From Bilabrum cf. latius (taxonomy: Eukaryota): a stretch of DNA of 64,000 nucleotides. Position numbers and translations under genes: made by a program. The stretch is from NCBI GenBank assembly GCA_965178125.1, contig OZ237758.1, forward strand, positions 62,001 through 126,000, given 5' to 3'. The notes beneath the pieces were generated by a model that saw only the letters and a list, made by a program, of their open reading frames with translations, made no database searches and was not told the origin of the DNA. Numbering within the stretch: the first letter of the stretch is position 1; every line of letters begins with the position of its first letter. Of the stretch, positions 1 through 64,000 are shown piece by piece.

Positions 1-1646
1 CTCGTCCCAGCCAGTGACAGGGCCTTCGTTCTCCTTCCGACCCGCCCGCAGGCCGGGGGCCTGCGGCCACCTTGCGGCCTCCACCTACTCGTCCCCGCCA
101 CGAGAGCTGCCCGCGCCGGAGGCAGGACCTGCAGCTGAGCCGCTGCCTTCGCCTGCCGCAGATCTACCCTAGGCTCCCCCCTCCTCCTCCTCCTCATCAT
201 CTCCAAGGATCGCAAATCCAGGGTCCATCGAGCGCCCGCCAGGACCGGATGGCCCCGGCCTGGCCTGAGCCTGCCTCGCCCTGGACGGCCCACCGGCCCT
301 CCTCCGCTGCGACCGCGAGTTGGACGACGAGGACGAGGACATGCCACGCGTGTGCCCTTGGCTAGTGCCATCATCATCCGCAAAAGGCACAAAGGACCCG
401 CCCGCCGCCCCCTAGTCACCACCAGCCCCCGTGTCCCTCGGCTGCAGCGCCAGGCCCAGCCCCCGCCTGCCCCCCCGGCGGCTCGCTGCGGCGGCAGCCT
501 GGGCTCGGTCCTGAGGCACTGCCAGACCGGTTGCAGAGCCAGATACGCCACCAACCCCCCTTGCATTCTCCCCCGGCTTCACCGCCAGCACCCCCAGCGG
601 CCTCCTCCTCTTGGCCCCACCAGCACCAGCTGCAGCACCAGCAGAGGCACCCAGGGCTGCGTCCGGCCCCTCGCCCGCTGCCCCGAGTAGACCCATGCCC
701 GCAGCAGGACCGTCACCAACATCGCCCGCAAGGTCCACGGCCCCATCTATACCGGCCTCAGCCCCCGACCCCTTGACCCCCGCTGCCTGCGCCTCGAGCC
801 GCCCCAGGTCCACGTCCTTCCACTCCACCTCAACCTCCTTGGCAGAGGCCGCGGTAGAGTCCGAGGGGGAGGACCCTCGGGGACCGCTGGTACGAGCACC
901 CTGCAGCGCCTTCCATTGCGCCACCATGCGGCGGCGGAACATGGCATGGCGAGCAGCGAGCCTCTCGCGTTTGTCCGTGCCGCGCCTGACGCCGTGGGAG
1001 TAGACTCGCTCAGCAACCGTAAATCGGCCATCCCGCTCTGCCACGTGCCCCCAAGCCATATAGAATAAGGCGCATCCCTCACCGATCCTCTTCGACCACA
1101 GGTATCGAAATGTTGGTGCCGGATCCTTCGCCATGTTTGCGAGGCGAATCCAGAGCGCAACGTAGCGCGTATCGTTCCGATACCTGGGATCCTTGGAAAA
1201 CTGGGAAGTCACCTCCTCTAAAGCGGTTTCAACAGGTGTTTTCACACCCCCTGACGGCAGGTGGTCCTCAATCCAACGGATGTAGTCGATCCACGACGAC
1301 AGAGGGTCCTCCGATTTGGCAGCCTTGGCAATCCTTTTCTTCCATGCTCTGCTCCAACAGTTTACAGTAGAATCGTTCGAAAACCAAAAATATGAATTTA
1401 TAAGGGCATTATAATAGGTAATTTGGCACAAATTGGCGATTGGGCTCTTTCTTTAGGGACAGGACCAGGTGTATTGTGCACCACTCACTGTTGCTTCTTC
1501 TTGAGCTCTTTGGCAGACAGCTCTTCGCGCCCTAGAACTCTATTCAGCCTTCGAACATTGCGACCACGTTTCAAGGGCTGCACGTTTTCTTTGCTCGTCT
1601 CCCACTCCGGGTCATTCACGCTTGCTTCGGCAGGACGGGCCGCCAT
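1..1646 (-). CDS. BubR1/Mad3-type spindle checkpoint protein, N-terminal part (continues past window start)
   Basis: Exon 1 (1646-1489) has EWETSKENVQPLKRGR (KEN1). A GT-AG intron (1488-1349) is followed by the Mad3/Bub1 TPR-like domain (DPLSSWIDYIRW, YRNDTRYVALW). Reading through TAGs at 412, 169 and 85 gives an ABBA-like FVPFAD and a second KEN box, RKENEGPVTGW. Confidence 0.88.
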
Positions 1647-1759
1647 AGTTTGAAAGTTGAACGTCTATCGATCCGAATAAACAGCGGGTAAGGTGTATCT
1701 TCAATAAAGAAGGTTCGATAAATACTGCACGAAGCTGTGACCCAAATTTGCCGACTAGC

Positions 1760-4700
1760 ATGCGGCTGCTTGCAGTATGTGCTATTCAAGCCGCATATTT
1801 GTGTTTAGTAGCTGCTTCAGAAGGATCGATGAGCGTGCGACTGGGTACGCCGTGGCCTATCGGGGTCTACAACCCCGCCATGCAGGCGTCGTAAGCATCA
1901 TTATCATCATGCAGCTCCAACCAACCAACCTCATCGAATTTTCAAGTAATCATTTATGAATGTTAACTATATATCTAATCGCAGCGAATTTTTGGCAGAC
2001 GAAGACAGGGCGTCGGCAGGGTCCCTACTGGTCTGGAGATTCCTGGATCGGGTGTGCAGCTCGGCAGCTGTTCAGCCACTGACCAGGGCATCAATAGCTG
2101 AGGTAGCTGTGAACGCATCCGCTGGTCTAGTAAAACACCTGTCATCAAAGGTGAGTGTGGCCTTGAGAAAGCGAAGCCCACAACGGCAACCTATCTACGG
2201 CAGCAATCACACGTGGCATACACATGTCCTGTGTTGCCAACCCCACACCGAGCAATTGCTGCCGCACGCTCAGATTCTTGCTTTACATTGCAGGTTCTTA
2301 GGGTTTCCGTGGCATCAAACGCCTACGCGGCCGCGATCGAAGCCCATCGCCGGCAGGCCCTTGGCACCAGGGACGCATGCCCCGGCAGCGGCCCCGGCAC
2401 CAGCAGTCCCTCGGCATGGGCTGTGGTGGGATAGGATGCCACTCCAGTGTGTGACATTGCTAGTCTAGCCGCAGAGGTCAAGAAACTGTCCGCAGCCGCC
2501 CCGGCGACCGCCTCTGCTTCCGCTGCTGACCTCGTCTCGATCGCGTCCATGGACCGCCCCCGGGCCTCTGACCACGCGCTGCCGACCGCTGACTAGATCC
2601 GAGCGGCTGGACTAGCGCAGGGCGATGGGTCGGTGCTCCTCTCCTTCGGCTCCAAGGCGGGCATTCAGCTCTCCTCAGATGCCCCGCGCACTGCCCAGCT
2701 GCCCCCCTTCGTGGCACTGTACGGCGCCGCCGGGGATGCCTCGCTGTGCCCATGGCTGGCGGAGGGCGCGCGACTTGCCGCCGATGGAAGCGCGCGCGTG
2801 GTGCTACGGCACTTTGACCCGAGCACTTAGTAGGGTGAGGGAAAGGGAGAGGGAGCCCCTCTCGAGCAGCCGTTGAGCGGGTACGGTGTCTCGCTGGACG
2901 TGAAGAACATGGAGTACAAGGTCATCGACGATCGGGCCGCGGGGGATGAGGTAGGGGATGGTGAGGGCGGGGCCGAGACACAAGCTGAGGAGGCTGCTGT
3001 GAGGGCCGCTGAGGACGCCATCGATGCCCCGGCTGTGCTGGCCTCTCAGGCGGCGCTGGGCGGCGTGTCTGTGCCCCAGCAGGGGGAAAGGGTGAATCCG
3101 CTGTCGAGCGTGTACTCGAGGCTGCACTCAGCTGCAGCTGAGTTGTGGGACTCGAGGTTTTGCGGAGTTGAGGACGAGAAGGAGGAGGACGACGGGGCCA
3201 AGAAGGGCAAGCGGAAAACGAAGCAGAAAACAAAGAAGAGAAAGAAGAAGACGAACAAGAAGTAGACGGCCGGATCGGTGTCGAGCACGGGTCGCAAATG
3301 CACGCAGCCCACGCTGCAGGACGCCCAAGAGCCGTGGAAATCCGCCAGCAGCGTCAAGTGGGACGGGGGCAAGCCACCCGTACCGCCTGCCCTTCGACTC
3401 AAGGAGGACGGTGCGGGTGCATCGCTTGATGGCGGTCTCAGAGCAATCAACCACACGTATCTCGGCCTGCAGACGGCTGCGTTCATGTGGCATGCAGTGC
3501 ACGGTGGTGACTCGATGGGCGCGGCCAACAGCACCGCAGCAGCCGACCCCAGCTCCGATCCGAGCTCTGACCCGCTGCACCTCCTCTCAGCACTCACCGG
3601 TGACTTCCCTCGCATGGCGCCCGACCTGCAGTCCCTGCCAGTGCCTCCCAAGCTGGTGCAGTCAGTGCGCCGGGCAGCTCGCATCGTTGGCTTCGGGCAG
3701 AACGTGGTCCTCGTGAACGGGCGCCTGGTGGACGTCACGGCCGCGTCCTTCAACTACTTCAAGCTGCTGCGCACGCTGCAGGACGAAGCCTCGGTGCTGG
3801 CGGCCTTCGGGCGACTCCCTCTGGCAGAGGAGGACCAGCGGAGGCTGAGGGAGGTCTCTGCAGCGGCTGCGGGGAGCGGGGGGGGAGAAGGTGGTGGGGG
3901 TTCACCCGCAGCAGGGAGCAGCGAGGACGAGGACGAGGTGGACAGCGTGGATCCCTCGGGGGCTCTGCGGGTGGACATTTCGGGCGGATTCCTGCCGCCT
4001 GGGAGTGTGAAGGGGGGCGAGTCAGACGAGGACGAGGACGAGGACGACGAGGACTTGCTGGGCGATGACGAAGATCCAAGCGGCGCTGGCACCGGGAGCA
4101 AGCCAGTGGCACCTGTGGCATGGCTCAACGACGTAGAGGCGGACGAGATGTACGCGCAGTGGCCGCGGAGCCTGCGAGGCCTCATGCAGCCGTCGTGGCA
4201 GCTGCCGCAGATCCGGCGCAACCTGTTCACGCTGGTGATCATGCTGGACCTGGGCTCTCCTTCGGGCATGCAGGGCCTCCTTCAGGCCGTAGGGGTGCTG
4301 CAGCAGCAGCCTATGCGGGTTGGCCTCGTGCTCACCACTCGCGAGGACGACGTGCACCTGAACAGCGAGGGCGAAGGCGGGGGCACAGGGGCTGTCGGAG
4401 AGGAGCTCGTGGGGGACTCCGGCCTGGCAGTGCCCAGCAAGGACGACGAGGAGTCGTGGTCGCTGCCCGCGACCCCCGCCCAGGTGGCGCTGCTGCTGGA
4501 CGACGCGCGCGCGAGGTACGGCCCCGAGGCAGGTCGGGACTTTGCGTTTGTGCTGGCCCAGGGCTACCAGCAGATGATGCAGCAGCGCATGCAAGAGCTA
4601 GCCATGCACGATGCCGCCGAGGAGGCGGAGGAATCCGGTGGAGGCGGCCTGTTTGGCGGGGGCGGCTCCCAGTCCTCCGATGTGGCCGAGGAGGCCGAGC

Positions 4701-7700
4701 GGGCGGAGCGGAGGCAGGAGAGGCACCGGCGCCGCGTGGAGGAGCTCCTCAAGGAAGGGGTCCCTCTCAGCGTGGCGAGGGACGCGTACGTGCGCGCGGT
4801 GAGGCCCCGCATGCCGCGCACCACCATGTTTGCAACTTCGGTCGCGACCGTGCAGGAGGCCGCGGCGGAGGCGCTTCGTGACGAGAGCGGGGCCGGGAGG
4901 GAGCGGCTGAACGCAGCCCGGCGGTGGCACCTGGGCACGGGCCTGCCCCGGTCGTGCTTCGTGCTGAACGGTCGAGTGGACACTGGAGTGCTCAACATGC
5001 AGCGGGCGCTCATGGGAGTCTCCATGCAGGAGAAGGGCGTGCTGCAGGCCATGGTACAGCGGCGGATACTCACGGACAGTGGCCGGAGGAGGGGCAGGAA
5101 GGCCGCGGCTGCGAAACTGGACCGTTCCCCCGAAGCGGTGCACAGCCTCATCATGCGGCACACGGGCGCGCTGCCCTCGTACGATCGCCGGATCCTGGCA
5201 CCGCTGGAGGCCAAGGGGGGCATGGGCATGTACGGGATGGGCGGGGAACAGCGGGAGCAAGAGATCACGCTGCCGCTTGCCTCCTCCCTGGCGGCTCCTC
5301 TGCTGCAAGGGGTCAGGTTCGTGCACCCGGCGGGCACTGACGGCAGCGCCAAGGCGGTGTCTCTGGTGGTGGCGGACGACCTGGGGACTCACGCCGGGCT
5401 GGCCTCTCTGGAAGGCGCCCTCTAGTTTGCCATGGTGCAAGGGGACGATGGAAGCGACGAGGACGAAGAGGGGAGAGGAGAAGACGACGATGAAGACAAC
5501 GAGCCAGAAGGGCCCTCCCGCCTTCAGAAGATGGCGCGGGTGGGTCTGGTGCACCTGAGGGGTGCGAGCACGGGTGCGGCGGGTGGGCCCGGATCCCTGC
5601 CAGCACTGGTCGCGCACTCTGCAGTAGTGGTGCTGGACGATCTGGTGGCGGAGGATCGAGGCATCCCTGCTGGTCCTGAGGCGCGGGTGCGCGTGGCTCT
5701 AGCGTGCGTGCGGGCGGCGAGGGAGACGGTGGAGGAAGTGGGGCTGCTCGTGGGCGAGGCGGGGGAGGGGGGCACCGGCAGGGTGGCGGGGCTGAGATCC
5801 ATGAGCTCGTGCGCGGCTGCAGCGGCCTCGAGTCTGCGGTATAAGGCCGCCCTGCGCGTGGCGCTGGGTCAGAGAGTGGCTGCGGTGCTGGCCGGGGCGT
5901 CTGCAGACGAGGCAGCCGCTGCCATCTAGCTCCCATCGGTGCCCGAGGGCGGAAAGGCGGTCACCGAGAAGCAGCTGCGGCGCTTGGAGGAGAGGGCAAA
6001 CGAGAGCGCTGCTGCGGCCATCCAGGCGGCGAGGGCGGCGGCTTCCTCGGCTAAGGCCCTCCTCGACGCTGTCGGCCTGAGGGGGGCCGGGGCTCAGTCC
6101 AGGGGCATGGGTGGTGCACCCAGCCAGGAGGGCTTCAGGGGCGTGCTGGCGAACGGTCGCGCGTTCGAGTTGAGGGACAGGCAGGTGCTGACCGCCTCGA
6201 TGGCTGGTCTCCTGGTTGAGGCAGAAAGCGGGCTGAGGGCGCGTAGGGTGCTCCGTGTGATCGAGGGGGCGCAGCTGGCGCACACTGGCAGCGAGGTGGC
6301 AGAAGGGGAGGAGGGCGATGCGGAGGGCGACGCCGGAGAGGGGTCACACCTGCGGGTGTCCCCGGATGATGTGAGCGCAGACTACATCAGCAGCGTGGTG
6401 GCGGCGGCGTCCTCCGTGCTGGGCGAGTACGAGGCCCTGGGACGGAGGCAGAGGCTTCCCGCCAGCATCATGGACGCGTTTGGTCTCAGCTACTCGACGC
6501 AGCCCAGCGGGGGTGCTTCTGCATGGACCGGCGTGGAGGTGGATGCCCTGCTGGATCCCGTCTCGCTGGCGGCCCAGCGGGTAGCGCCCCTCCTCGTCCT
6601 GCTGCGGGACGTGCTGGGCGCCAAGGTGAGGCTCGTGCTGCAGCCCGCTCTGCGCAGCGACAGCGACCGCCCCCCACTCATGAGCTACTACCGCTTCGTC
6701 GCGCCCTAGCTCGCCCCATCCGTGCCTAGTCAGGACGAGGGCGAGGAGGAGGAGGCCACACAGGCCCTGGCTCACACTAGCTCTGCGCGGGCCGTGTTTG
6801 CCCACCTTGACAGCCGCATCGTGCTCACACTTAAGGTGCTGCCCCCGGAGCCCTGGAATGTGCAGGCGCGCCGGGCGGCACTGGACACGGACAACCTGCT
6901 GGTGCCAGCAGGTCGGCTGACCACGGCCGAGTTTCAGCTCAAGTCGCTCGTGGTGGCGGGCCAGTGCCAGGACCTGACCCACGAGCGAGCCCCGAACGGG
7001 TTGCAGCTGCAGCTCGTGGATCTCACGGGTGACGCCGACGTGGGAAAGGGCCACGTGCGCTCCGAGACGCTGGTCATGCAGAACTACGGGTACTTCTAGC
7101 TGCAGGCCAGCCCAGGGGTCCACGCGGTCGCGCTGGCCCCCGGCCGTGCCTCTGATCTGTACGAGATCCGCGCGAGGCCGGACGAGGCAGCCATTCTGCT
7201 GGTGGAGAGGGCCCTGCGAGAGCGGGCCGCCAATCTCACCGCGGAGAGCCAGGGAATGTATGCAGAGGTGGACGAGAGCGGTGAGGCCCAGCCGAGAGAA
7301 CTGGACCTGAATGCTGTTGACCTGCCTGGGACAGGGGCAGCGGGACTGTAGGAGGAGCTGGATGCGGCCAGGAGGCAGCACGAGCAGCAGGTGAGGAGGC
7401 AGGGCGGACAGGGGCTCGTGCACCTGCCGCAAGGCCCTCAGCTGCAGCTGGATGGAGATGGAGACGGGAATGGGGACGGACAAGCAGAGGCCTGGCAGCT
7501 GGCGGAGGGTCTCACCTCTGACTCGTCGTGGAGGGAGTGGATGGCGCTGCTGGACGGGGAGGTGAGGGCGCCCTTCTTGGAGGTGAGCGTGAGGGACTTC
7601 ACGGGCGAGGTGACGCAACTCAAAGTGCGCAAGCAGCCGGGGCAGGAGGAGGCACGTCTGCTGGCCGGGCTTGGTGACAAGCTGGAGGACGAGGACGAGG

Positions 7701-8734
7701 GCAACAGCGGGGGCTCGGCTGGGGGTGGACTGTTCGGGGCCATCTCGTCGATGCTGGGAGCTGGAAGGGGCTTGAGCGGAGATGCGGCCAAGGGGCTCAA
7801 GAAAGACAAAGCCAGTGCATAGGAAGCGGGGCCCGGTGCCGTGCAAGTGCAGGAACTGGGACTCGGGGGCGTGCCGGACGGGGGCCCTGACGACGACCGG
7901 ATCCACGTGTTTTCTCTGGCGAGTGGGCACCTGTACGAGCGATTCCTGCGCATCATGATGCTGAGCGTGAGCAAGAGATCCAGCCGGCGAGTCAAGTTCT
8001 GGCTGGTGGAGAACTTCCTGAGTCCCGCCTTCAAGCGCGGCGTGGCCTCCATGGCGCGGGCCAAGGGCTTCGACGTAGGGCTGGTGACGTACAAATGGCC
8101 CGACTGGCTGAGGCAGCAAACAGAGAAGCAGCGGATCATCTGGGGATACAAGATCCTCTTCCTGGACGTGCTGTTCCCCCTGGGCCTGGACCGGGTCATC
8201 TACGTGGACGCGGACCAGGTGGTGCGAGCAGACCTGGCCGAGCTGTGGGACATGGACCTGCAGGGGGCCCCGTACGGGTACACTCCCTTCTGCTCCTCAA
8301 GGAACGAGACTCTGGGCTTCTAGTTCTGGAGGCAGGGCTACTGGCAGCAGCACCTAGGCGACAAGCCGTACCATATCTCTGCCCTGTATGTGGTGGACCT
8401 GGCTCGCTTCCGGCGGGCAGCGGTCGGGGACCGGCTCCGAGCCACGTACGATCAGCTGAGCCGGGATCCGAACTCGCTCTCGAACCTGGATCAAGACCTG
8501 CCCAATTACGCCTAGAACGAGGTGCCCATCTTCTCCTTGCCTCAGCAGTGGCTCTGGTGCGAGTCATGGTGCGACGACGGGTCCAAGTCAGAGGCCAAGA
8601 CCATCGACCTGTGCAACAACCCGCTTCACAAGGAACCCAAGCTGGATATGGCCCGGCGTGTCATTAGCGGAGAGCTGTTTGAGGAGTCGTGGGTGCAGCT
8701 GGACAAGGAAGCCTCCGAGTTCGACATGACGTGA
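1760..8734 (+). CDS. UGGT: UDP-glucose:glycoprotein glucosyltransferase (GT24), about 2245 aa
   Basis: Signal-peptide-like start; introns 1891-1984 and 2151-2293. Motifs [78 protein letters not shown]. One frame from 2294 to TGA at 8732 with 13 in-frame TAGs and no TAA/TGA. Confidence 0.95.
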
Positions 8735-12529: not shown

Positions 12530-15208
12530 TCATGCACGCTGGCCTCTTTGGTTTGACTCCGCCCCAGTGGCAGTGCCAGTGGCAGTGGCACGCACGAGGC
12601 TCCGGTAGACCGGGGTGTCGAGCCGGCCATCGCTACCGCTACCGCCACGGCCTCTGGCGGGCACCTCCCATCCACGCAGGCCACCTCCCGACCCTGACGT
12701 GTCTAGCTCGACTTCAGAGTCGCGATGCACCGCCCAATCCTCGGTGTGACGACTGCCTGGGTCCTGTCGCCGCCTCGCCACTGGCATCCCGGTCTCCTCC
12801 GCCACAGCGTCGGCCAGGGACGAGTCCAGCCCAGCCGCGAGGCCCAGCGCATCTTGGCGGTTGAACCCCTCCATGTGTTCCCTGGCATCTCGCAGCAAGC
12901 TCTGCGCATGCTCCATCGACCGGGATAGACCGTACACATCGTCTTCGTCTTCGTCGTCGTCTTCGTCTTCGCTGTCACTGTCCCGAGCAGCGCTCAGGCC
13001 GGCAGTCAGCGACCCAGTGACTCGAGCCGTTGCTGTAGCCGAAGCTGAGTCATCCAGCACCTGCCCACCAGGCCCCTACTTGCGCCCAGTCCCCAGAACC
13101 GCCTCGGCCGCCCCCATTGGACCCTGACGGTGCGAGGCTGCGAGTGCAGACCGCAAGCTCCCCACACCGAGCACGGCACCGCTGGCCCGGGTGTTGTGGC
13201 TGGTGCTGGCCCCACGCTGCTGCCCCCCTTCCTGCCCCTGTGACCGACCCCGCTTCGAGGTTGCAGCGGGGGGGCCTTGGCTGCTCCGAGAGCTGCGGCG
13301 GGATCGATCGGCCCTAGGCCCTCTGCTCCTGGCGCCCCGTGTGCCCTGGCGGCTGCTTCTGTCAGTGCTGCCCACGCTGGAGGTCCGGGGGCGGCTACCA
13401 CCCCGACTGCCAGCACCCCGTGAGGACCGCCTAGATCCACCGCTTCGTCCGCCTCTATCCTCTGCCACGACCACTCCATGCGTTCCGCGAACTGGAGTCA
13501 CCTACCCATTCATGCGACCTGCGGACCGAACGGGGCCTGCGCGAGAGCCCTGGCGCCCCGCACCGCCGTGCAAATCACCACGCACAACCCCACCCCGCCG
13601 CACCGGTAGCCGATCCGCCGCCACGCCCCCTCTCCCTCCCCCCTCCCCTCCCAGCAGCTGGGAGCCTCCCCCTTTCCCACGGGCATCGACCGCGGTGCGG
13701 ACTGGCAACGGCATGGGCATCGGCATAGGCATGGGCTGAGTTCGCTGGCCTGGTACTTGCGGGGCAGGGGTCGGCTGGGGGATGCCTGAATCACGCGGCG
13801 CCGGTTCCGCTCGTAAGGGGGACCCCGGGTGCTGCCCCAGCATGGGGGCACCTGTTGGTGGCTGCTTGCCAACGGCAGATGGTGCAGAGGCGGCAGGGAC
13901 AGCAGCCCGCACTGGCCGTGCAGCAGGCCCGTGTGGCCCGCCCTGCTCAGCTTTGCCCGGTATACTCATCGAGGGCAGCGCTGCTGACCCCTGCAGCCCA
14001 CTAGACACCACCAGCTATTCTCTGGCATGGGACAGTCCCGATAGCCACGGCTCGTCCTCCTGGGCCTCATCCTCAGCGCCCTCATTCTCTCCCCCCCCTT
14101 CTGCCTCCCCCAGTGCGTGCTTGCCTGCGGCTGTGCCTCCATTGCCCTTGCCCGAGGCAGCAAATTTGCCGACTTGAATCGCGCTCGGCTCCAGCGGCAA
14201 CCCAAATCGCAGAAAGCCTTTCCCACTTACTCCTTGCTCCGCCACTGGTGGCTGCTTCTATTGCTGGTGTATCGAGCGATTGCCGGTGCCCGTCAGTGTA
14301 CCGCCGGGCTTGTGGGAGTGTGACTGTGACTGTGACTGTGACTGTGACTGTGACTGTGACTGTGACTGTGACTGTGACTGTGACGCTGTATCTGCTCGCA
14401 TTGCAGGCTCGACGCAGAGGTCTGCATCGATAGTGCTGGAGTCTGCATGCTCCGATTCGACGGCTCTGAGCACGGATTGACCGAGCAGGCTGACCCCTTC
14501 TTGCAGGGCCCCTTGAAGCCTGGCTCGGAGGCTGCTGGCCTCTTGCTCGAGGCGAGCAGCACGAGATTCTGCAGTCACAGCCCTCTCCTCCGCATCGTCA
14601 ACCTTGGACTGTGCAACGCTGTGCTGGCCTTCCATCCTGGATCGCACCTCTCGCTGCGTCACGTTCCGCCACGCGGCAAAGCAAGAGCTCACCCAGCGCT
14701 AGCCTGCCTAAGCATCAAGCCTGGAAGCTAAGGCAGCGAGCTGTGCCCGTTGGCGTGTTCGGCTACCTAAAACTTGTTCTTCCCAGGCAGAAAATACTGT
14801 TCGTGGGGTGTACCGTAGTGACACGCATGATGACCGATTCCAAAATGCTCGAACAGCAATTAGATCCGAAGCGCGACAAAGCCGTCGTTCTGCCACTGCT
14901 TGCGCATGCTCAGCATGGGTAAGCTACTACCTGAGCCCTTGTAGAGACGCATTCATTGACTTGATCTCCTCGTCGTGCTACCTTTGCAGCTCTGCCGCTG
15001 ACCGCGCATGGGTTGCACGGATTTCGGTCTCGCACGCCAAAATAGCTTCGTCAATGGTTTCAGAGCAAGCCTGCAAGGCCTTTGACTTCGATTGGCGTAA
15101 AGCATCCATTCTGTAGCTCTTCTTGGTGCGCGCTTGCTGCCATTTTGAAAGCCGCAAGATGAAGATTGCGGCCTCAACTCGCACTGCACACTTGCACTTG
15201 CCTACCAT
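12530..15208 (-). CDS. Hypothetical coiled-coil / low-complexity protein (start uncertain)
   Basis: Seven same-frame ORF fragments joined by 9 TAGs (14978, 14927, 14924, 14708, 14699, 14258, 14015, 13502, 13076). Heptad-like segments and FxxW motifs (VFSAW, CFAAW); TGA stop at 12530. Confidence 0.6.
14319..14384. repeat. (TGTGAC)11 microsatellite encoding poly-(Ser-Gln) on the minus strand
   Basis: Directly visible tandem hexamer. Confidence 0.95.
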
Positions 15209-15600
15209 TCACTTAGCCCTGCAGTATGTCACAGGCAGGCAGAGTGCGAAAGAGAGATTGGTCCTTATCTGATGGCTAGGAAGACACTGGTGCAGACGGT
15301 CCTGCTATAAAGGTTGCTGCGGGGCGAAGGAAGAAGCGGTCACGCTTTGGCCCTGCCCCGGAGGCTAGTTCGCAACCTCCACGAAGTGATTCCCATCAGA
15401 GCACGTATACATCCATGCCAGCTACGAATGCTTCCAATCCAGATGCAATGAGGGAGAGACGGGGCCGAAAATCGCGATTCGGGGCGGTCCCAGACACCAA
15501 GCAGATTCCTGGACAAGCAGCGGCAATCCCCCCGACGCTACCAGCTGCCTAGGGACACGCTGAAAGCAGCGTTTCTAGCGTGCCAAAATCTTCTCGGGCG

Positions 15601-18600: not shown

Positions 18601-19284
18601 TACGCCAACCTGCTGACCGGGCTGCCGTGCCACCTGCATCCGACCAGCGCCCTCAGGGTGCTTGGGGCCTCGCCCGACTACGTGGTGTACCACGAGCTCG
18701 TGTACACCTCCAAGGAACACATGATCTGCGTGTCGGCGGTGGACCCCGAGTGGCTGGTGGAGGCAGGCCCGCGGTTCTTCAGGCTCAGGGAGGGGGCGGG
18801 CAGCCGGCGACAGGCCATCGGGGTGCAGGGCACTCTGGGGCCGGAGGGCTTGCCCGCGGGCCAGGGGGCTAGTGCCGCTTCCTCCTCCGCGTCATCTTCG
18901 TCATCTGCCGCTGCATCGACGCCCTCTACAAGGGGGCTATCTGTAGGTGGCAGCACACCGGGCGGGTTCTCCGTGGCAGCGTCCTCTCGGTTCAGCGGGC
19001 TGCAGTCGATAGGCCCTGACAGGCTGCTCACCATGAACCGGTGGGCTGCTGCAGATGCAGAGACACCACTCATCACCAGCGGGGGTCTGGATGAATTCGG
19101 GGCGGGAAGAGGCGGGAGCATGGCAGGACCCCAAGGCGGGGGCGTGGGGGCATCCGCACGAGGTGGAAGGCGGGGCGGGGTCGGGGCTGGAGGCACGAGG
19201 TAGGGTATTGCTGCCGCGATGGAGCGGCTCAAGCGGAGGGAGCAGATGAAGAGGAAGAAGACGCCCAGGCGGGGAGGGCTGTGA
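15601..19284 (+). CDS. PRP16: Pre-mRNA splicing DEAH helicase PRP16/DHX38 (start uncertain)
   Basis: PPFLQGK...VRDPTSDMA...FWEVGG N-terminal block; [27 protein letters not shown]2 region. TAGs at 16324, 16660 and 19201; reading through the last gives the family-typical C-terminus TPRRGGL-TGA. Confidence 0.95.
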
Positions 19285-20779: not shown

Positions 20780-20949
20780 GGTTCCATTTCTTGAATATCG
20801 TCACATCCCGCCAAGTGCAACTTGTCGTCTCATGTAGCCCACACAGACTCGCATAACTCCCAAACTGGTTCAATTGTGATATATTTACCATAGTAAAAAG
20901 TGATCACGAGCTGTGATATTATCTTCAGCTTCACCCCAACGCTTGTAGG

Positions 20950-42757: not shown

Positions 42758-42899
42758 AATGCATTTCTGAAGCCCCCCGGCCGGGGCTCGAGCTACAAAG
42801 AGGTTGCAACCGCTTGCGGCTGCCGTGCAATCCCACACTTTTCATCCGAGTAGAACCCAACAATAGGGTTCCAGCGTTTAGTCATCGTTCTCAGTCTAT

Positions 42900-45800: not shown

Positions 45801-48800
45801 GCGGGCCGCGTGCGGCCGGGCATCTGCTACCACCTGTACAGCAAGCGGCGCTGGCGAGGCATGCCCACGGACATCGCCGCCGAGATCCTGCGCACCCCCC
45901 TGGAGGAGCTCTGTCTCCAGGTCAAGCTCATGCAGGCCGGGAGGGCGGCCGCGAGGCGCGGGGTGGCTCAGGGGCATGTCGGTGGGGGCGCGCCCTCGAC
46001 TAGTGGGGGTCTAGGGCTGGAGGAGGACGAGAGCGTGGCTGCATTCTTGGCCCGGGCCGTGGAGCCCCCCCCGGCGCTGGCCGTCCGTCAGGCGGTGCGT
46101 GCCCTCGTCGATGTGGGGGCCGTGGCGGTGGTGCGCAGGGGGCTGGCTTCGCCCTCGTCGTGGTCGTCGCCGGCGAGTGCGAGTGCGAGTGCGACTCCTC
46201 CGACTCCGACTCCAAGGGAGGTGTTGACCCCGCTGGGCCGGGCTCTGGCACGGCTGCCCATGGCCCCGCGGCTGGCGAAGATGGTGCTGGTGGGCTGTGT
46301 GCTTCGTTGCCTGGACCCAGTGCTCACTGTGGCGTGTGCCATGGCAGATCGATCTCCGTTCGTGATGCCCATGCGGTCCAGGGACAGGGAGCGGGCCGAT
46401 GAGGCGCGGGCCCGGCTGTGCGACGGCGCGAGGTCGGACCACTTGGCGCTGCTGGGGGCCTTCAGGGGCTTCGAGAGGGCCCGGGGGGGAGGGGGGGGTG
46501 GGGGGGGAGGGGACATGTTCCAGTTCGGGGGGCGCGAGATCCGGTTCTGCAACGACCATTTCCTGAGCCCCGTCTCTCTGGGAATGCTCCGGGGGTCCAA
46601 GGGGCAGGTGGTGGACGCCCTCCTCGAGGCGGGCACGCTCAGGAGGGAGGACCTGCGCGCGGGGGCGGGAGGCGCAAACGCGCACGCGAACAACCCGGCG
46701 GTGGTGGCAGCGGCGCTGGCCGCAGGCTTGTACCCGCACGTGGCCCGGCGGGCCCCCGGTGACACCAAGCTCAAGGGCAGAGAGGGGCAGCCGCTGGCCA
46801 TCCACAACGCCAGCGTGAACGGGGGAGGCGGGGCGGGCCGTGCGCTGCAGCGGTCTCTGGCCAGCGGCGAGGCGGGCGGGGCGTGGGCCGCCGAGGCCCG
46901 GGATTCACGCGCCTTTCAGAGGTCGAGGAGCGACCGGAGCGGGGCGTCTTCTTCTTCCAGGTCGTCGTCCTCGAGAGCGAGGGAGTGGGAGTGGCACTGC
47001 TTCCACGAGGTGAAGCAGATGAAGCAGAGCCACGGGGCCAAGGCTGTGGTCACCGAGACGACCGTGGTGCCAGCGGTGGGTGTGGCGCTGCTGTGCGGGC
47101 CAGACGAAGCGGCGGTCAGAGCAGCAGCGGGCTTCCCTCTGGCCTGGCGCATGCACGGCGAGGGGGGGGTTGCTGGGTAGATCTAGGGGGAGAGGGGAGT
47201 CAAGGGGGCGGACGGAAAGATGGGCAAAGGCAAGGGCAAGGGCAAGGGCAAGGGCAGATCTCATCGGGGAACACCGCTTGTTCCCGCCTCTTCCATGCCT
47301 GTGTTCCCCAGCGCCCTCCCCGCCGCCCCCGGTCTGGCACAGAGCGGCCCCCTCCAGGTGCTTGAGCAGCTGGCTCTCGCGGCGGGCTGCTTCGACGGGC
47401 CCAGGGAACAGTGGCCCCTGCGGCCCGGGGCGGCCTCCTCCAGCGAGCGCCCAATGGCCCGCGGGATCCCAGCCGAAGTCCTTGCCGGGTGGCCCGCCGG
47501 CCTCCGAGAGGCTGCCCTCCGGGTGTAGGCGCAGCTGGGCAGGGCGAGGGATGCGCCCGTGGTAGACCCTGGGTGGGCGCTGGTGGCGGCGCGGGCGGAC
47601 GAGGCCGCTGGTGCAGCCGCGGCGCAAGTGGCTGCGGCGCGGGGGCGAGGAAGCGGCGTGGCGGTGGGAGGAGCGGGGGGGGCAGGGGTGGGGGCAGGGG
47701 CGGGTGGGGCCGTGCTGCAGGCCCTGCATCCAGGCGGCGAGTTGGCGGTCATGTCTGCGGTGTCCAGTGGTGTGACGAGTGGTGCCCCTGCATCCGCTGC
47801 AGGCGAGGACGGCAAGGGCAAGGAAGATGGGGAGGAGGAAGAGGATGAGGAGGCCCCGGCCCGCGGCCCGCTACGAGTGGACGACTGGATCGCGTTCGGT
47901 GCTGCGAGGGCGGAAGGCCTGGGGCTGGCGGTGCTGCGGCTGCGGCTTCGGACTGCCCTGACTCTGGCGGCCTAGGGCAGGCTCTTCGATGGGTCCTCCG
48001 GTCTGGGCGAGGGTCACGCTGAGTCGCTCGCTGGGGCGGTGGGGGATGTGCTCGCCCTGGAGACCTTCGGGCGGCGAGCCTCTGCGGCGACTGGGGTGCG
48101 GACAGATGCGGGCAGGGGAAGGGGAAGGGGAAGGGGAAGGGGCAGAGGTAGAGCTGGAGGCAGGGGGCGGGGATCGAGGGGTGGCGATGGGGGCATGGAA
48201 AGGGGTAGGGGCAGGGGCAGGGGCTACGGAAGCAGCAGCGTTGAAGGTGGTGGGGATAGGGCAGGGAGCCATCGGGGTGGGGGATCCAGCAGGGGGAGGG
48301 GTGGCGGCGGGGGCAGGGGACGAGGGAGCGAGAGGGAGAAGGGGAGGGGGAGGGGGTCGTCTGTCCCCCTGGTGCCGTTCTAGGCCTCAGTTTCGATGGC
48401 GAGGGCAGCCAGCGAGGGGGAGGGGTGGATGCGAGAGAGAGGGACTAGAAGTGGTCGGGGTGGGTTGGCATCGCACGGGGGTGCATCACATGGGGGTGCA
48501 TCGCGGGGTCCAATGCAGAGGGGTGTGAGCGACAGTGCAACGAGCAGCAGGACAAAACAAGTCGTGGCTCGCGGTAGCACGGGTGGGGCCATGGCTCGCG
48601 GTAGCACGGGTGGGGCCATGGCTCGCGGTAGCACGGGTGGGGCCATGGCTCGCGGTAGCACGGGTGGGGCCATGGCTCGCGGTAGCACGGGAGGGGTGTC
48701 TGCTCATGAGCATAGGGGGCAAGATAGCGTTGGCCACGGTAAAAAGAGCGGTGAAGGCCAGTCGAAGAAGAAAGGAAGGCGCACCAAGAAGGCCAAACGA

Positions 48801-49007
48801 GCGGAGAAGCCTGCTGGAGAAGGCAGGGGTGCAGAAGCTGGTCTACCGGATGCGCGGGCCCCAGCTGTTTCAAGCAGTTCGGCTGCATAGGCTGCAATTG
48901 CTGCTGCAGTGGCAATGGGGATCGTTCCAAGCACCGAAGGTGGGGCGAGGACGAACAGCTCAGCAAGCTATGCAAGCGTGCCAGCCGCCAAGCCTCTCGA
49001 TCTATAA
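42900..49007 (+). CDS. R3H-domain DExH RNA helicase (YTHDC2/DHX36-like) with RGG-rich tail
   Basis: R3H (FPADLNNVQRKFVHHLC); [49 protein letters not shown]2. Conserved VDDWIAF block lies beyond four TAGs. TAGs at 44160, 47178, 47184, 47526, 47973, 48381, 48888; TAA stop. Confidence 0.88.
48565..48691 (+). repeat. 27-bp coding tandem repeat, (ARGSTGGAM) x about 4.7
   Basis: TGGCTCGCGGTAGCACGGGTGGGGCCA units. Confidence 0.9.
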
Positions 49008-49467: not shown

Positions 49468-52167
49468 TCAGAGGGCGAAGTTGCCGCCGCCGCCTCCGGC
49501 CAGGGCATTCTGCTCAGAGCAGTCGAGCCCGGCGTACCCGCTGAAGCACGAGCAGGTCCCGGTGGACTGGTCGCACATGCCGCGGTCCGAGCACACGGGC
49601 TGGTCGTTGATGCCGCCCGTGCCGAACTGGATGTAGTACAGACCGGCCGCCGGGTCCGTGGAGGAGGTGCCGCACACGCGCTCGGAGAAGTCCAGGCCGG
49701 CGTTGAAGCCCACGAAGACATTCTCGATGGAGCTCCTCAGCGCGTCATCAGGGTGCATCGCACTGTAGCGCTCCGCGTCGGCCAGGCGGGAGGTGTTGAA
49801 GGTCATGGGGAAGCCAGTGCCGCTGACGGGGCCGAAGAAGTCCGCGTCGCCGGCGACCTTCCAGACGTACCTGTCGATGCTGGTGGACGTGTCCACGACC
49901 TTGATGATCAGCGTGCCCGACTCTGCCACGGGGGCGTGGTTGTCGTGGAACGCGACGTAGATGTCCTCGGGCCCTGTGTTCTCGATGGTCACCGGCTGCT
50001 TGGGCAGGAAGAACTCGTAGATGTCCCCGGCCTGGCTGCTGAGCAGCTGCGATGTGTTCCCCAGGCCCACGAAGTCCTGTCCATTGGTAGGCACCACGCC
50101 GTCGAAGCCGGTGGGGATGCCGCCGAACAGGTTCTGGTTCTGGGGGGTCATCCCGCGGCTGAACGAGTTGTTCGAGTATGCCACGAACTCATCGTTGATG
50201 AAGAGGGCCATGGGCGTGTAGTCGTCCTCAAGGATCTCGATGGTCACCTTGAGGTCGTACGTGGGGTTGCTGTCCACGGGGGCGCCGAAGGACAGGTTGT
50301 GCGCCACGTGGTTGTTGGCGGTCACGTTGCCCACTGCCTCGCCCGTGAGGATGAACAGCTGGTTGCTGGCCTCGAACACGGGCTCGGCAAGGTAGTCGAT
50401 CTCGTAGATCAGGTTGTCCGCGCGGGAGGCGTTGAGCCGGTACAGCTGGTCGTTGATGGTGTGCGAGGGGTCGGGCACGCCGCTCTGGCCCTCACCGAAC
50501 TGCCAGACGAAGCCCACCTTGGCTGCCTCGCGGGTGAACATGGCCGCGTTCGTCAGTACGTCGTAGACGGCAAGGTTCGACCCGCTGGTGTCCGAGGGGC
50601 GATGCACCTGCACATCCAGGTCGTTGTACACGTTCCCATACTTGTCGAATACCTGGTACTCGAAGATGGACTGGTTGTTCACGCCGTTGATCTCGGCCGC
50701 GTCATCGATCACCTGGATGCGGAACTTAAGGGTCTCCCTGGGCCCGTCTCCGATGGGGATCACCGCGATGTTCTCATGCACTGACTGCATGTCGCCCGCG
50801 CGTGTGTCGACCTTGGCCCCGCCCTTGCACAGCATAGACGGGTGCGAGACTCCGCTGAGGTCGGGCACGTCGCCCATGGACTCGTCGAAGGTGATGGCCA
50901 GCCTGTAGAACGTGTCCGTCTCAAGCTCGGTGATGGTCACCGACTGCACCTTGGAGCGCATCGTCACTCCGTCCACCACGAAGTCAGCGAGCACATCGTT
51001 GGGCATGTCCTTGAGCGCGTTCAGCACGACGGTCCCCTGCGCCGTGGTGGTCACAGTGGGGTCGAAGAAAGCGCTCTGGTACTGCGCGCCGGTGTTGGCG
51101 TCCGTGTACACGATGGCCACGTAAGGGTCCACCATCTCGCCGTTGTAGGGGCAGCGCACGTCGAGGTACTGCACCTCCCCCGTCTCGGGGAGGCCGTAGT
51201 TCAGCTCCAGGTCGGTGCCCACCGTGGTCAGTGGATCGTCGCCCAGGGGGCACAGCCGCTCCGAGCAGTCCATGCCGGAGTACCCCGCGTCGCAGATGCA
51301 CCGCTGGTACTTGTCGGCGTCCCACAGCCCGTACTCGAACTCGGAATCGACCAGCGCCAGGTACTCGCTCTGGGAGCGGCACACTCCGTGCCCGCTGCAC
51401 TCGTTCGGGCACGCCGTCCGCTGGCAGGCGTTGCCCTCATACCCCGCGAAGCAGTTGCAGGTGCCGCTGGAGCGGTCGCAGGTGCCCACGGCGGAGCACT
51501 CGGCGGAGAAGTGGCCCTCTTGGGAGCGCACGTAGAAGGGGAGCACCGTCTGGTCACTGGTGCCGTACAGCTGGGAGGGATTGCGCTCCCACCAGCCCTC
51601 AGGCCGGATCTGGGGGTTCAGCGAGGTGGACGTGGTCACACCAGAAGGGAAGTCAGCCGCGGTGGAGGAGGGGCCGCCGCTGTGCAGCTGGTTGTCGTGG
51701 TCGATGTCGCCCTGGGGGACATCCACGAAGGCGTTGCCGAACGGGCACACGCCTGCGATGAAGGCAAGTGATGAAACTAAAGTAAATTACAGCTGTTGCG
51801 CATAGTAATGTTGACACCGTGCACTGCATCGCGACAAGGAGAATCTCGGATGGACCCAACGGCTGCTGGTGCGTTGAACCGATCGAGACCGGACGCAGCG
51901 ATGGAAACTCACGCTCGCTGCAGTCCGAGCCGATGAAGCCGTCAAAGCAGCTGCACACATCGTAGTTCGTAGTGCCTGCGGCATGAAGTGCTCAAGAAAG
52001 GGCTCAGGTGTTGGTTCGCTGTGCGATGCGTTGGATAGTCCTCCGAAGCACCGCGTGCACTGGTTACCCTTTCTCTCACACTGTCCGTTGCCGGAGCAAG
52101 CATTGGGACAATCAGCAATTACTTGATGGACAGCCGCAGCTGCCAATACAAAGGCTACAGATCGCAT
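49468..52167 (-). CDS. Tubular mastigoneme protein (Ocm1/Sig1-like, EGF-like Cys-rich)
   Basis: Signal peptide, CPNACSGNGQC; introns 52079-51976 and 51912-51753; CPFGNAFVD, EGHFSAECSAVGTCDR, WDADK, CPLGDDPL, terminal CSDRGMCD...CSEQNAL. No TAG codons; TGA stop. Confidence 0.85.
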
Positions 52168-52338: not shown

Positions 52339-55039
52339 ATGTCAGGGTGGAGTGACATGAGAGGGTTTGGGAGCGGCCTGCCCCGAAAATCACACGACCC
52401 CGATCAGTCGGAAATCAGCCATGCATATATGGAATATGTGAGAAAGGTGCTCGCTCCAACCTGGTCTCTTTCATGCTATCGATCTATTATTTTTCTTGAT
52501 ACGATTCATTCTTACATTGTAGATAGAACGAATGGATCAAGAAGCACTCGAGAGGCAGAAACGATTCAGGGAAAGGATGCCCCAACTAGTCAAGGAGCGT
52601 CAAGAACGCTTGAGCCTGGAAATGGCTCATCGCCTGCAGCATGGGACGTCAGAGCCAACCATAATGGAGGAGCACCTGCGCTAGCGACGGCTAGGAGGTA
52701 TGCGAGACCCCGCTGATATGGCCGCGATCATGCAAGCTATGGGCGGAACACCACCGTCCTCGCGCCCACCCCCCTTGGCCAGGCACGAGCTTCCCATCGG
52801 CATTTCCGCAGCCCTTGGAGGAGCATCTGACAGTGAACCCGGTTCGAATGGCGGCGGCGCGGAGACGGACGAGCAGATGGCAGCCCGCCTGGCCCGGGAG
52901 GACGCCGCCAGCGAGACGTACCTCTCTGCCCTGCATTCGGGGGGCTCTGCCAGGACGGGGGCTGCGAGGGGGGGCGCCAGGGGGCCTGAGATGCGGCTGG
53001 GAAGCGGCCCGGGGGCTGGTCTGGCCTCTTCCATACCCGGTATCAGCGGGCGCGGGACCGTCCGGGATCCGTGGGCATCTGGCGAGGGCGGCAGGAGACC
53101 CCGGGGGGGCGGCAGCAGTGGGGGCCCACTGGGCGGCGGCAGCGGCATTCCCAGCTACCTGATGTCCCAGGCCTCGGATATGCACAGGAGGATGGGCATT
53201 GGACCGGGTGGTGCAGGTCCAGGAAGTGTGACGAGTGCGGCGGGGGGAAGGGAGGACGACGAGGCCGCCTCACGCGAAGCGGCCCGTCGCCGCCGCATGC
53301 TGCTAGGGGGCTCCTCTATCTCCCAGCAGCCCGCAATAGTGACCCGCGGTGGGAGGGACAGAGGTGGTGTCCATGCCAGAGATGGTGGTGCGGGTCCTCT
53401 GGCGTAGAGTCCGGTTGACCTGGACCTGGACAGCTCAAGCGATATGGAAATGGATGTTGACGTGGATGCGGGCGCCGGCGGGCCCTCAGGCGGCGCTCCC
53501 TCGACTCCTCCTACAGATGTCCTGGCTGCACCCCCGGACCCCAATTTGATGTCCGAGGAGGAGCAGCTCCAGTGGGCCATGCGGCAGTCGGAGGCGCTGG
53601 CCAAGCAGGCAGCCGAACAGGCCAGGGCTGACTAGACCTAGACCTAGACCTAGACCTAGGGCGGGGCTGGCAGCCAGCAGGCCCAGCTGGCCGGGGCGAA
53701 AGCGGCCCTGCAATCGGCAGAGGACGAGCTGATGGCCATCCAGGTGAGCCTGGCAGAGGTCAGGCGATATACATAGGAAGGTAGGGAGCTCACGAGGCGG
53801 CGGGATGAGCTGCGGGGGTTAGTCCGGCAGCGATAGGCAGAGGTGGCTAGCCTCGAGCAAATGGTGGGCGGAGAGGAGGGTGGGAGTCGGAGCGAGCCGC
53901 CTCCTCCACCGGCCTATGGGGGCACACCTTCGCCTGCATCGGCAGACCCATCCCAGGCGTACGCCTCGGTCAGCAACGGCAGTGGGGCCTCCCCATCCCT
54001 GGGGCGGACGGAAGACCCGGCAGTGCTCCGTGATGCTCTTCGGAGAGAGCTCTGGGGGAGCAGCGGCAGCGGCAGCGGCAGGGGCAGGGTATTGTCCAGC
54101 GCGGGTGCGAGCAGCCAGTGCGCTGGCACTGGTGCCGGCGTGGGTACAGGGGGTTCCTGGGGTGTGTAGGGCACTGACACGGGGGCGTCCTCTGGCCGTG
54201 GCACTGCAGGTGGCTTGCAAGTGGCCTAGAGAGGGGGCGCGGGCGCAGGCACCGGCACCGGCACGGGCAGTAGATCGAGAGACTCGCCGCCGTCGGGCTC
54301 GTACTCCACGTCGTCCTCTCTTTTTTCGTCCTCTCGGGCCCGCAGCGGGGAGCAGGAAAGGGAGGCCAGGGACCGGCGCATGGCCGAGATGCTGGCGCGC
54401 AGGGAACAACGGGAGGCCAGGGAACGGGGCATGGAGGAGATCCGGGCACGGGCAAAGCGGCTGCGGCTGGGGGCTGGCAGGAGAGAGAGGGGGGGTGCAG
54501 GGGAGCGAGGCACTGCAACCGGGTCCAGCTCTGGAATCGGCACTGGAACACGAAATGCAAGGGGGGCGGGAGGGGGGGCCGGCAGCCGATCCCCTCTTGA
54601 CAGCGGCGGGCCAAGCATGCGTGTTCCCCGCCTCGGAGGAACGAGCAGGACGCGCGCGAGCGCATCCTCTAGGAGCAGGACTGGGGCAGGCGCAGGCGCA
54701 AGGACTGGAACTGGGGCGGGGACTGGGACTGGGATTGGCTCGAACTTGGGCGGGCGGGGCACTCGTTTGTCCACGGGCGGGGCCTCAAGTCTACGGTCGG
54801 GGCGGGGGTACAGTGGGGGGACGGGGAATAGCGGTCGTCGAGCCGCAGCAACTGCAGCCTCCGGCAGTAGACTCTCCGAGCCATCGTCTGCGCGAAGCCC
54901 GCAAGCATCGCTGGCGATCGCGGCTGCTCGCGACCGGGGCGCTGGTTCTGGGTCTGGATCTGGCACTGGGCGCGGCTAGGTCTCGACCCATACAGGCGGG
55001 CAGATGCGCGCGTCACGTGCCACGTGGGGCCGGAGGTGA
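52339..55039 (+). CDS. Hypothetical low-complexity protein with ubiquitin-binding (UIM/MIU-like) motifs
   Basis: Probable intron 52447-52522. DEQMAARLARED and MSEEEQLQWAMRQSE motifs plus a coiled coil; about 12 in-frame TAGs; TGA stop. Confidence 0.65.
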
Positions 55040-63168: not shown

Positions 63169-63517
63169 GGGAACAAAGGAGGAGGGCGAGCTCGGTCCAA
63201 GCTGGCAGCGGGTGGCGCACAGGTGATGCGCGGCAAGCGGAGCACCGGGATGCGAGGCCTCCAAAAGGCAGCCAAGGCGGGGCCCGGCGCGGCAGCCGTG
63301 CAGCTCGGCCTCATGCAAGCTGCCAGCACCGGCCCGCTGGTGGGCGACCTCGACACCGTGGGCTGACTGAATATGGTTACGTGATCTTGTTGTTTGCACG
63401 GAGCAGAATGCCGGTTCGTGTTCGCAGATGGGTGTTCAGTTATCTCGGAACAGATTCAAACAACAAGCGGCCAACCTGATCGGCTCAGCCGTGTACGCTA
63501 GGCCTCGCTTCCAGAAC

Positions 63518-63885
63518 TCACGTGTCCACCTCGTCCACGACCTCTTCCCCGGCACCAGCGCCTCCCTCGTTTGCATCGCTCGTCCAGAGCGTCAAGTTGT
63601 CCCTGATGAGCTGCATGATGAGGGTTGCGTCGCGGTACTGCTCCTCCTCCAGGTTGTCGAGCTCCGAGATGGCCTTGTCGAAGGCGTCCTTGGCAAGAGC
63701 GCACGCCTTGCTCTGCTCGTGTCTGATTTCGTAATAAAACACTGAGAAATTCAAGGCGAGGCCCAATCGGATGGGGTGCGTGGTGGGCAGCTGCTCCTCG
63801 GCCAACTTGCGGGCCTCCTCGTACTTGTCGCACGCCTTGTCTGCGGCATCCTTCACGCTGGAGATCTCGGCCAGATATCTGTAGC
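63518..63885 (-). CDS. 14-3-3 protein, last exon (gene begins beyond window end)
   Basis: [46 protein letters not shown] stop. Confidence 0.96.
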
Positions 63886-64000
63886 TGCGAACAGAGCAAA
63901 CATGTGTCGAATACGCCATCAAGCGCTGGGTGGGATTGAGGGTAAAAGCGGACGACAATGGAGAACGAATGACTCAGCGCATCGTAGCAGCACTCACTAG

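Follow-up and report, generated by a model that had tools for sequence, protein, structure and literature searches.

Glutamine as the probable reading of UAG in nuclear DNA of Bilabrum cf. latius, a probable stramenopile

Described UAG reassignments and the locus analyzed

Deviations from the standard genetic code among nuclear genomes are few, and UAG and UAA nearly always change together. Here, we describe a 64,000-nucleotide stretch of DNA from Bilabrum cf. latius (contig OZ237758.1, positions 62,001 to 126,000; hereafter the window) in which UAG alone appears to be read as glutamine, with UAA and UGA kept as stops. Reassignment of both UAA and UAG (UAR) to glutamine is the commonest nuclear variant (PMC5304391), and only a handful of lineages are given as reassigning UAG alone (PMC11687900). 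According to PMC11687900, UAG alone has become glutamine in Iotanema, Protocruzia tuzeti, and two phyllopharyngean ciliate lineages, leucine in a rhizarian (exLh) and some ciliates, and serine in Scotinosphaera, and UAG as glutamate also exists elsewhere. The UAG-only precedents named in a preliminary description of the window, which was made from the sequence alone, agree with this source, to which Protocruzia, the two phyllopharyngean lineages, and Scotinosphaera (serine) can be added.

Iotanema spirale resembles the present case in that UAG was reassigned to glutamine while UAA is still a stop (PMC5304391), and the same mechanism is proposed here. However, it belongs to Fornicata/Metamonada, another supergroup, is anaerobic, and is known from a transcriptome, and its primary stop is UAA (PMC5304391), whereas TGA stands at 19 of the 22 gene ends within the window. 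In Protocruzia tuzeti, H. sinica, and T. petrani, UAG and not UAA specifies glutamine, as found with Codetta and PhyloFisher at conserved glutamine sites (PMC11687900); these are alveolates with a ciliate genome architecture, in contrast to the 63.9% G+C and the stramenopile markers of the window. The UAR type (NCBI table 6), hosted by many ciliates, ulvophycean green algae, hexamitid diplomonads, Streblomastix, and Amoeboaphelidium, likewise turns a stop one base from CAG into glutamine (PMC11687900, PMC5304391), but it reassigns UAA too, which in the window ends genes and never interrupts one. The rhizarian exLh, some ciliates, and Scotinosphaera share the uncoupling of UAG from UAA (PMC11687900) and differ in the residue, as leucine and serine scored far below glutamine here. 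NCBI table 15 has exactly TAG as glutamine and TAA and TGA as stops, although it is a formal table, labeled "Blepharisma nuclei; some phages."

To read UAG but not UAA, an anticodon must be CUA, which is one base from that of tRNA-Gln(CUG); loss of UAG from eRF1 recognition is also required, and the eRF1 of Iotanema carries T32G in the GTS motif (PMC5304391). In Bilabrum, UAG would be decoded by a cognate tRNA-Gln(CUA), probably derived from tRNA-Gln(CUG), that pairs with UAG and not with UAA, and the N-domain of eRF1 would have lost recognition of UAG and kept that of UAA and UGA. No nuclear code change in stramenopiles was found in the full-text literature, supplementary files and subscription-only papers lying outside the scope of that search, and the stramenopile items encountered were mitochondrial; the preliminary description had also known of no nuclear example. 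Taken jointly, the propositions that UAG is glutamine, that the host is a stramenopile, and that the case is unreported appear likely.

In-frame TAGs and the residue they specify

The window is GC-rich, gene-dense, intron-poor nuclear DNA of a protist, with genes on both strands. Twenty-three open reading frames (ORFs) or exons were picked by homology or coding score, and genes were identified from Pfam and PDB matches. The standard code allowed stop-to-stop frames of at most 1005 amino acids (aa), and with TAG as sense, the longest frames were 2210, 2078, and 1373 aa; in control readings, the longest frame was 1126 aa with TGA as sense and 1005 aa with TAA as sense. Counted from stop to stop, the in-frame TAGs of the 23 ORFs numbered 111, of which 103 lay past the first ATG, in 16,438 codons (0.63%, or about 0.6% of codons); none of these codons was an internal TAA or TGA. 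Of the 23 ORFs, 18 contained TAG, with both strands represented, which bears out an earlier count of about 100 TAGs in 19 genes. The genes on which the argument draws are as follows.

2102..8734, plus strand: UDP-glucose:glycoprotein glucosyltransferase (UGGT); 2210 codons with 13 TAGs and no internal TGA or TAA, TGA end; Pfam Glyco_transf_24 (6.7e-136) and an alignment to PDB 5mu1; key TAGs, also on the plus strand, at 7097-7099, 8321-8323, and 8513-8515
38591..41149, plus strand: ROK1/DDX52-like DEAD-box helicase; TAA end; Pfam DEAD and Helicase_C, PDB alignments; 10 TAGs stop to stop, 8 past the first ATG (aa 51), key TAG at 40331-40333; likely start at the Met at 38825, with the same 8 TAGs downstream
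26758..28199 (start 26758 approximate), plus strand: TRM7/FTSJ1 tRNA 2'-O-methyltransferase; TAA end; Pfam FtsJ (4.1e-53); exon 1 encodes MGRFSKDKR and has its last base at 26843, followed by an 86-nucleotide GT..AG intron at about 26844-26929; exon 2 carries TAGs at 27006-27008 and 27228-27230
15163..19284, plus strand: PRP16/DHX38-like DEAH helicase; 6 TAGs, none in the helicase core, TGA end; Pfam DEAD, Helicase_C, HA2, and OB_NTP_bind, with matches named DHX38/PRP16
42771..49007, plus strand: R3H-domain DEAH helicase (R3H-DEAH); 9 TAGs, 7 past the first ATG, TAA end; Pfam R3H, DEAD, Helicase_C, and HA2_C
36533..38572, minus strand: Eco1/ESCO acetyltransferase; 7 TAGs, TGA end; Pfam Acetyltransf_13 (3.5e-15)
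23093..26620, minus strand: ankyrin-repeat TRP/polycystin-like cation channel; 3 TAGs, TGA end; Pfam Ank_2, PKD_channel, and Ion_trans
1..1452, minus strand, continuing beyond the window start: Mad3/BUB1 checkpoint protein; 3 TAGs in the nonconserved C-terminal part; Pfam Mad3_BUB1_I (2.3e-34) and a PDB alignment
28364..29440, plus strand: amastin-like four-pass membrane protein; 4 TAGs, TGA end; Pfam Amastin (2.2e-05, under the curated cutoff)
41267..42757, plus strand: alpha/beta hydrolase; 5 TAGs, TGA end; Pfam Hydrolase_4 (1.2e-08)
35400..35959, plus strand: LSm7-like gene; at least two introns, one of them GT..AG at about 35639-35725

Essential genes had been described as interrupted, and this stands for UGGT, PRP16, ROK1, Eco1, and TRM7, each identified by Pfam or PDB matches, but not for LSm7, in whose reconstructable coding parts no TAG was found. 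The gene formerly called claudin-like is the amastin-like one, with its four TAGs. Within homology-bounded spans of six genes (UGGT, aa 257-2204; ROK1, 280-741; TRM7, 30-432; the TRP channel, 69-852; R3H-DEAH, 81-1351; and PRP16, 532-1203), 18 TAGs, no TGA, and no TAA were found, the span of PRP16 being without TAG. Over all six frames, TAG accounts for 801 of 2450 stop triplets, and TGA, at 1358, is 1.7 times as common. The chance that all 18 in-span stops would be TAG under random decay is thus approximately 0.327^18, or about 2e-9.

The segment from 26800 to 46700, which includes 42 TAG sites, was compared at 90% likeness with contigs of four public runs (X1, X5, X6, and X7); the differences reported are among those listed, and 187 further differences and 1137 further pieces exist. 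Long contigs of X1 are identical to the window over 36752-46507, and those of X5, from a different study, over 36060-44839, with 35 and 27 of the 42 TAG sites, respectively, covered without difference. X6 and X7 yielded gene-sized contigs that span 24 of the 42 sites, with no other letter at any of them, and that leave gaps at Eco1 and at the frame of 30147-31895. These contigs are joined at 26843>26930 in TRM7 and 35638>35726 in LSm7, across the GT..AG ends of introns that X1 and X5 both retain, and from this splicing we infer an RNA origin for X6 and X7. The TRM7 joint yields a canonical start, and the X6 contig that bears it carries both TRM7 TAGs unaltered. Contigs identical to the window were also found for ROK1 (X6, 38810-40909; X7, 39328-40931), the amastin-like gene (X6, 28377-29195), and the alpha/beta hydrolase (X6, 41275-42192), and in a low-complexity frame at 32742-34739, five of six TAGs are covered unaltered by X6 and X7 contigs. 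Retention of UAG in mRNA, proposed earlier as a check, is therefore indicated at 24 of 42 sites in transcript-like contigs.

These comparisons bear on the idea that the TAGs are untranslated, being assembly or sequencing errors, pseudogenes, tiny introns, or RNA-edited sites. This would be the default under the standard code, and nothing specific speaks for it. Identical sequence is present in X5, X6, and X7, which come from other studies, and the spliced transcript-like contigs keep the TAGs and have no gaps. Furthermore, the frames are interrupted by TAG alone even though TGA is the more common triplet, the genes hit include essential ones, and the same pattern recurs in a related taxon (see below). 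We therefore regard untranslated TAGs as scarcely credible.

To assign a residue, the C-terminal 1111 residues of UGGT were aligned with the best 150 of 3222 representatives, ROK1 with 120 matches, and TRM7 with 119. In a Codetta-like test on these three genes, log-odds were summed per codon over aligned columns, and the controls were the sense codons represented by four or more columns; the standard residue was returned for 56 of 56. For TAG, represented by nine columns that were each at least 70% filled, glutamine scored +18.9 bits, followed by arginine at -14.3; serine scored -19.6, and leucine was also far under glutamine. Glutamine occupies 148 of 148 residues in the column of UGGT 7097-7099 and 117 of 149 in that of 8513-8515, as well as 118 of 120 in that of ROK1 40331-40333; at TRM7 27228-27230 it accounts for 74 and valine for 36 of 119. 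When retranslated with table 15, UGGT reads NYGYFQLQ at the invariant column. The preliminary description had placed TAG at glutamine positions by family knowledge and had suggested both codon inference and retranslation against orthologs as checks, and these results agree with it. All three TAGs of BUB1 lie beyond the domain aligned to PDB, and no residue information was therefore obtained from this gene.

Another residue for a sense UAG (glutamate, arginine, lysine, or leucine) has some columns in its favor: arginine at 104 of 150 in UGGT 8321-8323, where glutamine has 43; glutamate at 60 and aspartate at 27 of 119 in TRM7; and arginine at 42 and serine at 23 of 120 in ROK1. UAG as leucine, serine, or glutamate also occurs elsewhere (PMC11687900). 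Against it stand the summed log-odds, the nearly or wholly invariant glutamine columns, and the TAG/CAG pairs found at four of eight sites in the related taxon, and a residue other than glutamine is thus very improbable. Overall, we consider that UAG very probably encodes glutamine in this organism. The earlier reading of UAG as glutamine finds support in the residue inference, the conserved columns, the transcript-like contigs, and the exchange of TAG with CAG in a relative.

Several points weigh against this assignment. The call comes from nine columns in three genes, and four of the nine are variable, with glutamine not the commonest residue (P/S, K/R, R/S/N, and E/D); at TRM7 27006-27008 (column 26), the glutamate- and aspartate-rich column noted above, just 4 of 119 homologs have glutamine. 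The evidence consists of nucleotide sequences and alignments. Automatic labels were "RNA?" for X6 and X7 and "probably DNA" for X6, and one spliced joint has a side of just 29 letters in X6, in a comparison made at 90% likeness. A C>G difference at 30552 coincides with a TAG of a low-complexity frame that lacks a family match, amid piled-up short foreign contigs. The sole tRNA of the window is tRNA-His(GTG), and neither tRNA-Gln(CUA) nor eRF1 lies within the 64 kb. Finally, the 3' ends of transcripts are unmapped, which leaves room for occasional termination at UAG.

Two other candidates were rejected. An organellar origin was ruled out by the presence of typical nuclear genes with spliceosomal GT..AG introns, and recoding of the selenocysteine or pyrrolysine type was ruled out as the sites are too many and are located at glutamine positions.

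Termination and codon usage

As had been stated earlier, no reconstructed gene ends on TAG: the 22 gene ends within the window comprise 19 TGAs and 3 TAAs, the latter in TRM7, ROK1, and R3H-DEAH. Reading through the three TAAs adds 13 to 38 codons that score between -0.24 and +0.04 per codon (-0.24 for the extension of R3H-DEAH) and have a noncoding look. This bears on a table 6-type code in which UAA and UAG would both be glutamine and UGA the sole stop, TAA merely being rare in a GC-rich genome. TAA is indeed the rarest stop triplet in every one of the six frames (42 to 57 per frame), and UAR as glutamine is, as noted, the variant most often met with in nuclear genomes. However, if TAA stood to TAG as CAA stands to CAG, about 22 internal TAAs (103 x 108/511) would be expected in the 16,438 codons, and none was observed in these frames, which extend over full-length homologues; together with the three genes that end at TAA and the noncoding score of what follows, this makes such a code a very doubtful alternative. 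The data support a reassignment that would affect UAG alone, with UAA and UGA kept as stops, and the code would then be that of NCBI table 15.

The distribution of TAGs along the genes is uneven. By fifths of the first-ATG models, from 5' to 3', they number 30, 24, 16, 19, and 14 (Kolmogorov-Smirnov P value of 0.005). Given this 5' skew and start codons that are unmapped, part of the 103 may sit in 5' untranslated regions; either the modeled starts are too far upstream or TAG is genuinely depleted toward 3' ends. A depletion of this kind would suit an ambiguous UAG that is glutamine within genes and a context-dependent stop in others, as in the karyorelict/Condylostoma type, for which the unmapped 3' ends leave space. 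The last TAG also lies 6, 20, and 27 codons before TGA in the low-complexity frames at 30147-31895 and 52442-55039 and in PRP16, respectively. At 0.63% per codon, however, about 17% of genes are expected to contain a TAG within their final 30 codons, that is, about 3.6 of 21 complete genes, against the 3 seen. In addition, no gene end needs TAG, 73 and 323 codons separate the last TAG from the conserved C terminus in UGGT and TRM7, respectively, and the 5' skew is explicable by start codons set too far upstream. Ambiguity is accordingly improbable, and a UAG that is consistently glutamine is preferred.

As a glutamine codon, TAG would account for 103 of 722 occurrences (14%), next to 108 for CAA and 511 for CAG. 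Its share of glutamine codons falls as G+C at third codon positions (GC3) rises (Spearman coefficient of -0.61, P value of 0.002), as does that of CAA (-0.74), and the five most biased genes or exons contain no TAG. These are the following.

49468..51786, minus strand: tubular mastigoneme protein homologue with EGF-like repeats; no TAG and no CAA; GC3 of 0.93, the strongest codon bias in the window
58399-59580, plus strand: NIF/CTD-like phosphatase (Pfam); no TAG; GC3 of 0.88
55225-56754, minus strand: p25-alpha-like protein (Pfam); no TAG; GC3 of 0.82
11308-12126, minus strand: gamma-glutamyl-hydrolase-like (GGH) exon; no TAG; Pfam Peptidase_C26
63518-63973, minus strand, at the window edge: 14-3-3 C-terminal exon; no TAG; identified by translation alone, with no family search

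In its usage TAG thus resembles CAA, a rare codon: weakly biased genes have more of it, and the most biased have none. Such a pattern would be expected of a rare synonymous codon, one that may be read by a scarce tRNA.

Host lineage, relatives, and other features of the window

For the product of the minus-strand gene at 49468-51786, six chains of PDB 9ufe ("Tubular mastigoneme protein," OCM3, OCM5, and OCM6) gave matches, with E values of 9.5e-35 to 1.2e-22. According to a review, the tripartite structure of tubular mastigonemes and their placement on the anterior flagellum are unique to stramenopiles (PMC11412368). The Atlas clusters nearest to this frame are annotated "Sig2 family protein," with Oomycota as the commonest phylum. 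When the top 20 UGGT representatives were looked up, five had an organism name, and all five are stramenopiles (Hondaea, Thraustochytrium sp. LLF1b, Pelagophyceae sp. CCMP2097, Chrysophaeum, and Aureoumbra).

In a quick tree of PRP16, made from the best 120 matches with alveolates, haptophytes, and excavates not included, the window was placed in a set of 12 rows that includes five oomycetes and Ectocarpus, with a Shimodaira-Hasegawa-like approximate likelihood ratio test (SH-aLRT) value of 99. Its branch is long (1.33 changes per column, compared with a median of 0.26), and its amino acid composition is atypical; the lineage may be fast evolving, or high G+C may distort its proteins. A quick ROK1 tree grouped the window with unnamed sequences at 83 and gave no resolution of the backbone. 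The PRP16 core retrieved only generic helicase clusters from the Atlas, with no useful taxonomy, and an Rfam scan of the window found no rRNA gene. The EukProt record GECG01 is the nearest source-labeled sequence in UGGT and is among the nearest in ROK1 and PRP16; it may be the bicosoecid Halocafeteria seosinensis, an identity that was not used as evidence. On the strength of its sequences, the organism is quite probably a stramenopile flagellate, its stramenopile nature having been suggested at the outset; the mastigoneme gene, the five named UGGT matches, and, more tentatively, the PRP16 and UGGT trees point that way.

Over 26800-46700, sequence identical to the window was encountered in runs (X1, X5, X6, and X7) with four coded organism labels from four studies, with small shares in runs labeled "algae metagenome" and "protist metagenome." Perhaps the organism commonly accompanies or contaminates other cultures; alternatively, several names may have been used for it in the records.

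A metagenome scan with a UGGT segment returned five loci (L001 to L005). L001 (1766 bases, 57% G+C) shares 74.6% identity with the window over 552 aligned UGGT residues, and its frame contains three in-frame TAGs, no TGA, and no TAA. Of the eight aligned sites with TAG in either the window or L001, four have CAG in the other sequence, the TAG being in the window at two and in L001 at two, and these exchanges include the invariant GYFQLQ and the adjacent GYWQQHLG. In the UGGT tree, the window and L001 form a clade (SH-aLRT of 100) within a six-row group (99) that also holds four full frames of 1665 to 1920 aa, as called by others (P0001 to P0004). No in-frame TAG was found in the matched part of L002 to L005; the UGGT of L002 is a single standard-code frame of 1622 aa, and the frame of L005 has two TAAs and three TGAs near its 3' end, beyond the conserved core. 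With TAG in L001 and not in L002 to L005, the trait looks confined to a sublineage of at least two taxa.

What is described is thus a known code variant in a new lineage, with a second related taxon and TAG-free relatives. It is reasonably likely that UAG came to encode glutamine after the split from the sampled relatives with long TAG-free UGGT frames and that this is the first nuclear code change in stramenopiles, shared by a clade of at least two taxa with UAA and UGA as stops. If true, another major eukaryote group would become a data point on the frequency and route of uncoupling between UAG and UAA. The GC-rich genomes (64% and 57% G+C) with UGA as the main terminator would bear on explanations by AT pressure, and the set of UAG-sense and TAG-free relatives would offer a comparative system for identifying which tRNA and eRF1 changes suffice. 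Gene callers that apply the standard code break these genes, and annotations and phylogenomic matrices for the organism will be wrong unless table 15 is used. In a public protein collection, a 258-aa call for the window's own TRM7 (P0292) starts at an internal Met past the second TAG, an example of truncation by standard-code annotation.

The remaining features of the window are listed below.

9031-11145, minus strand: membrane protein; 4 TAGs; picked by coding score, no Pfam match
12530-15208, minus strand: coiled-coil protein; 9 TAGs; picked by coding score, no Pfam match
About 20512, minus strand: GNAT-like frame bearing RRQGAGR*L (asterisk, TAG); located by text match alone
20917..22347, plus strand: TMEM144-family transporter; 2 TAGs, TGA end; Pfam TMEM144 (1.6e-12)
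30147-31895, minus strand: low-complexity frame; 9 TAGs; no family match
32742-34739, minus strand: low-complexity frame; 6 TAGs; no family match
49128-49198, minus strand: tRNA-His(GTG), in the short stretch that separates the R3H-DEAH helicase from the mastigoneme gene; the sole RNA-family match (Rfam) in the window
52442..55039, plus strand: low-complexity frame; 13 TAGs, 12 past the first ATG; no family match and a weak coding score
59653-61020, plus strand: YbaK/tRNA_edit-like frame; 3 TAGs; Pfam tRNA_edit (1.6e-04, under the cutoff)
61260-62867, plus strand: leucine-rich-repeat protein; 3 TAGs; Pfam LRR_4 (2e-12)

A perfect hexanucleotide microsatellite, (CAGCAC) x 97.7, occupies 586 bases at 19636-20221; its minus strand reads (LV)n and spuriously tops the coding scores of the window. 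Near-perfect in-frame tandem repeats are present at 48565-48696 (27-base unit), 21813-21911 (15 bases), and 22831-22981 (24 bases). The first encodes ARGSTGGAM about five times in the tail of R3H-DEAH, and the second encodes GKGLE about 6.6 times in the TMEM144-family transporter, which suggests recent repeat expansion within coding regions.

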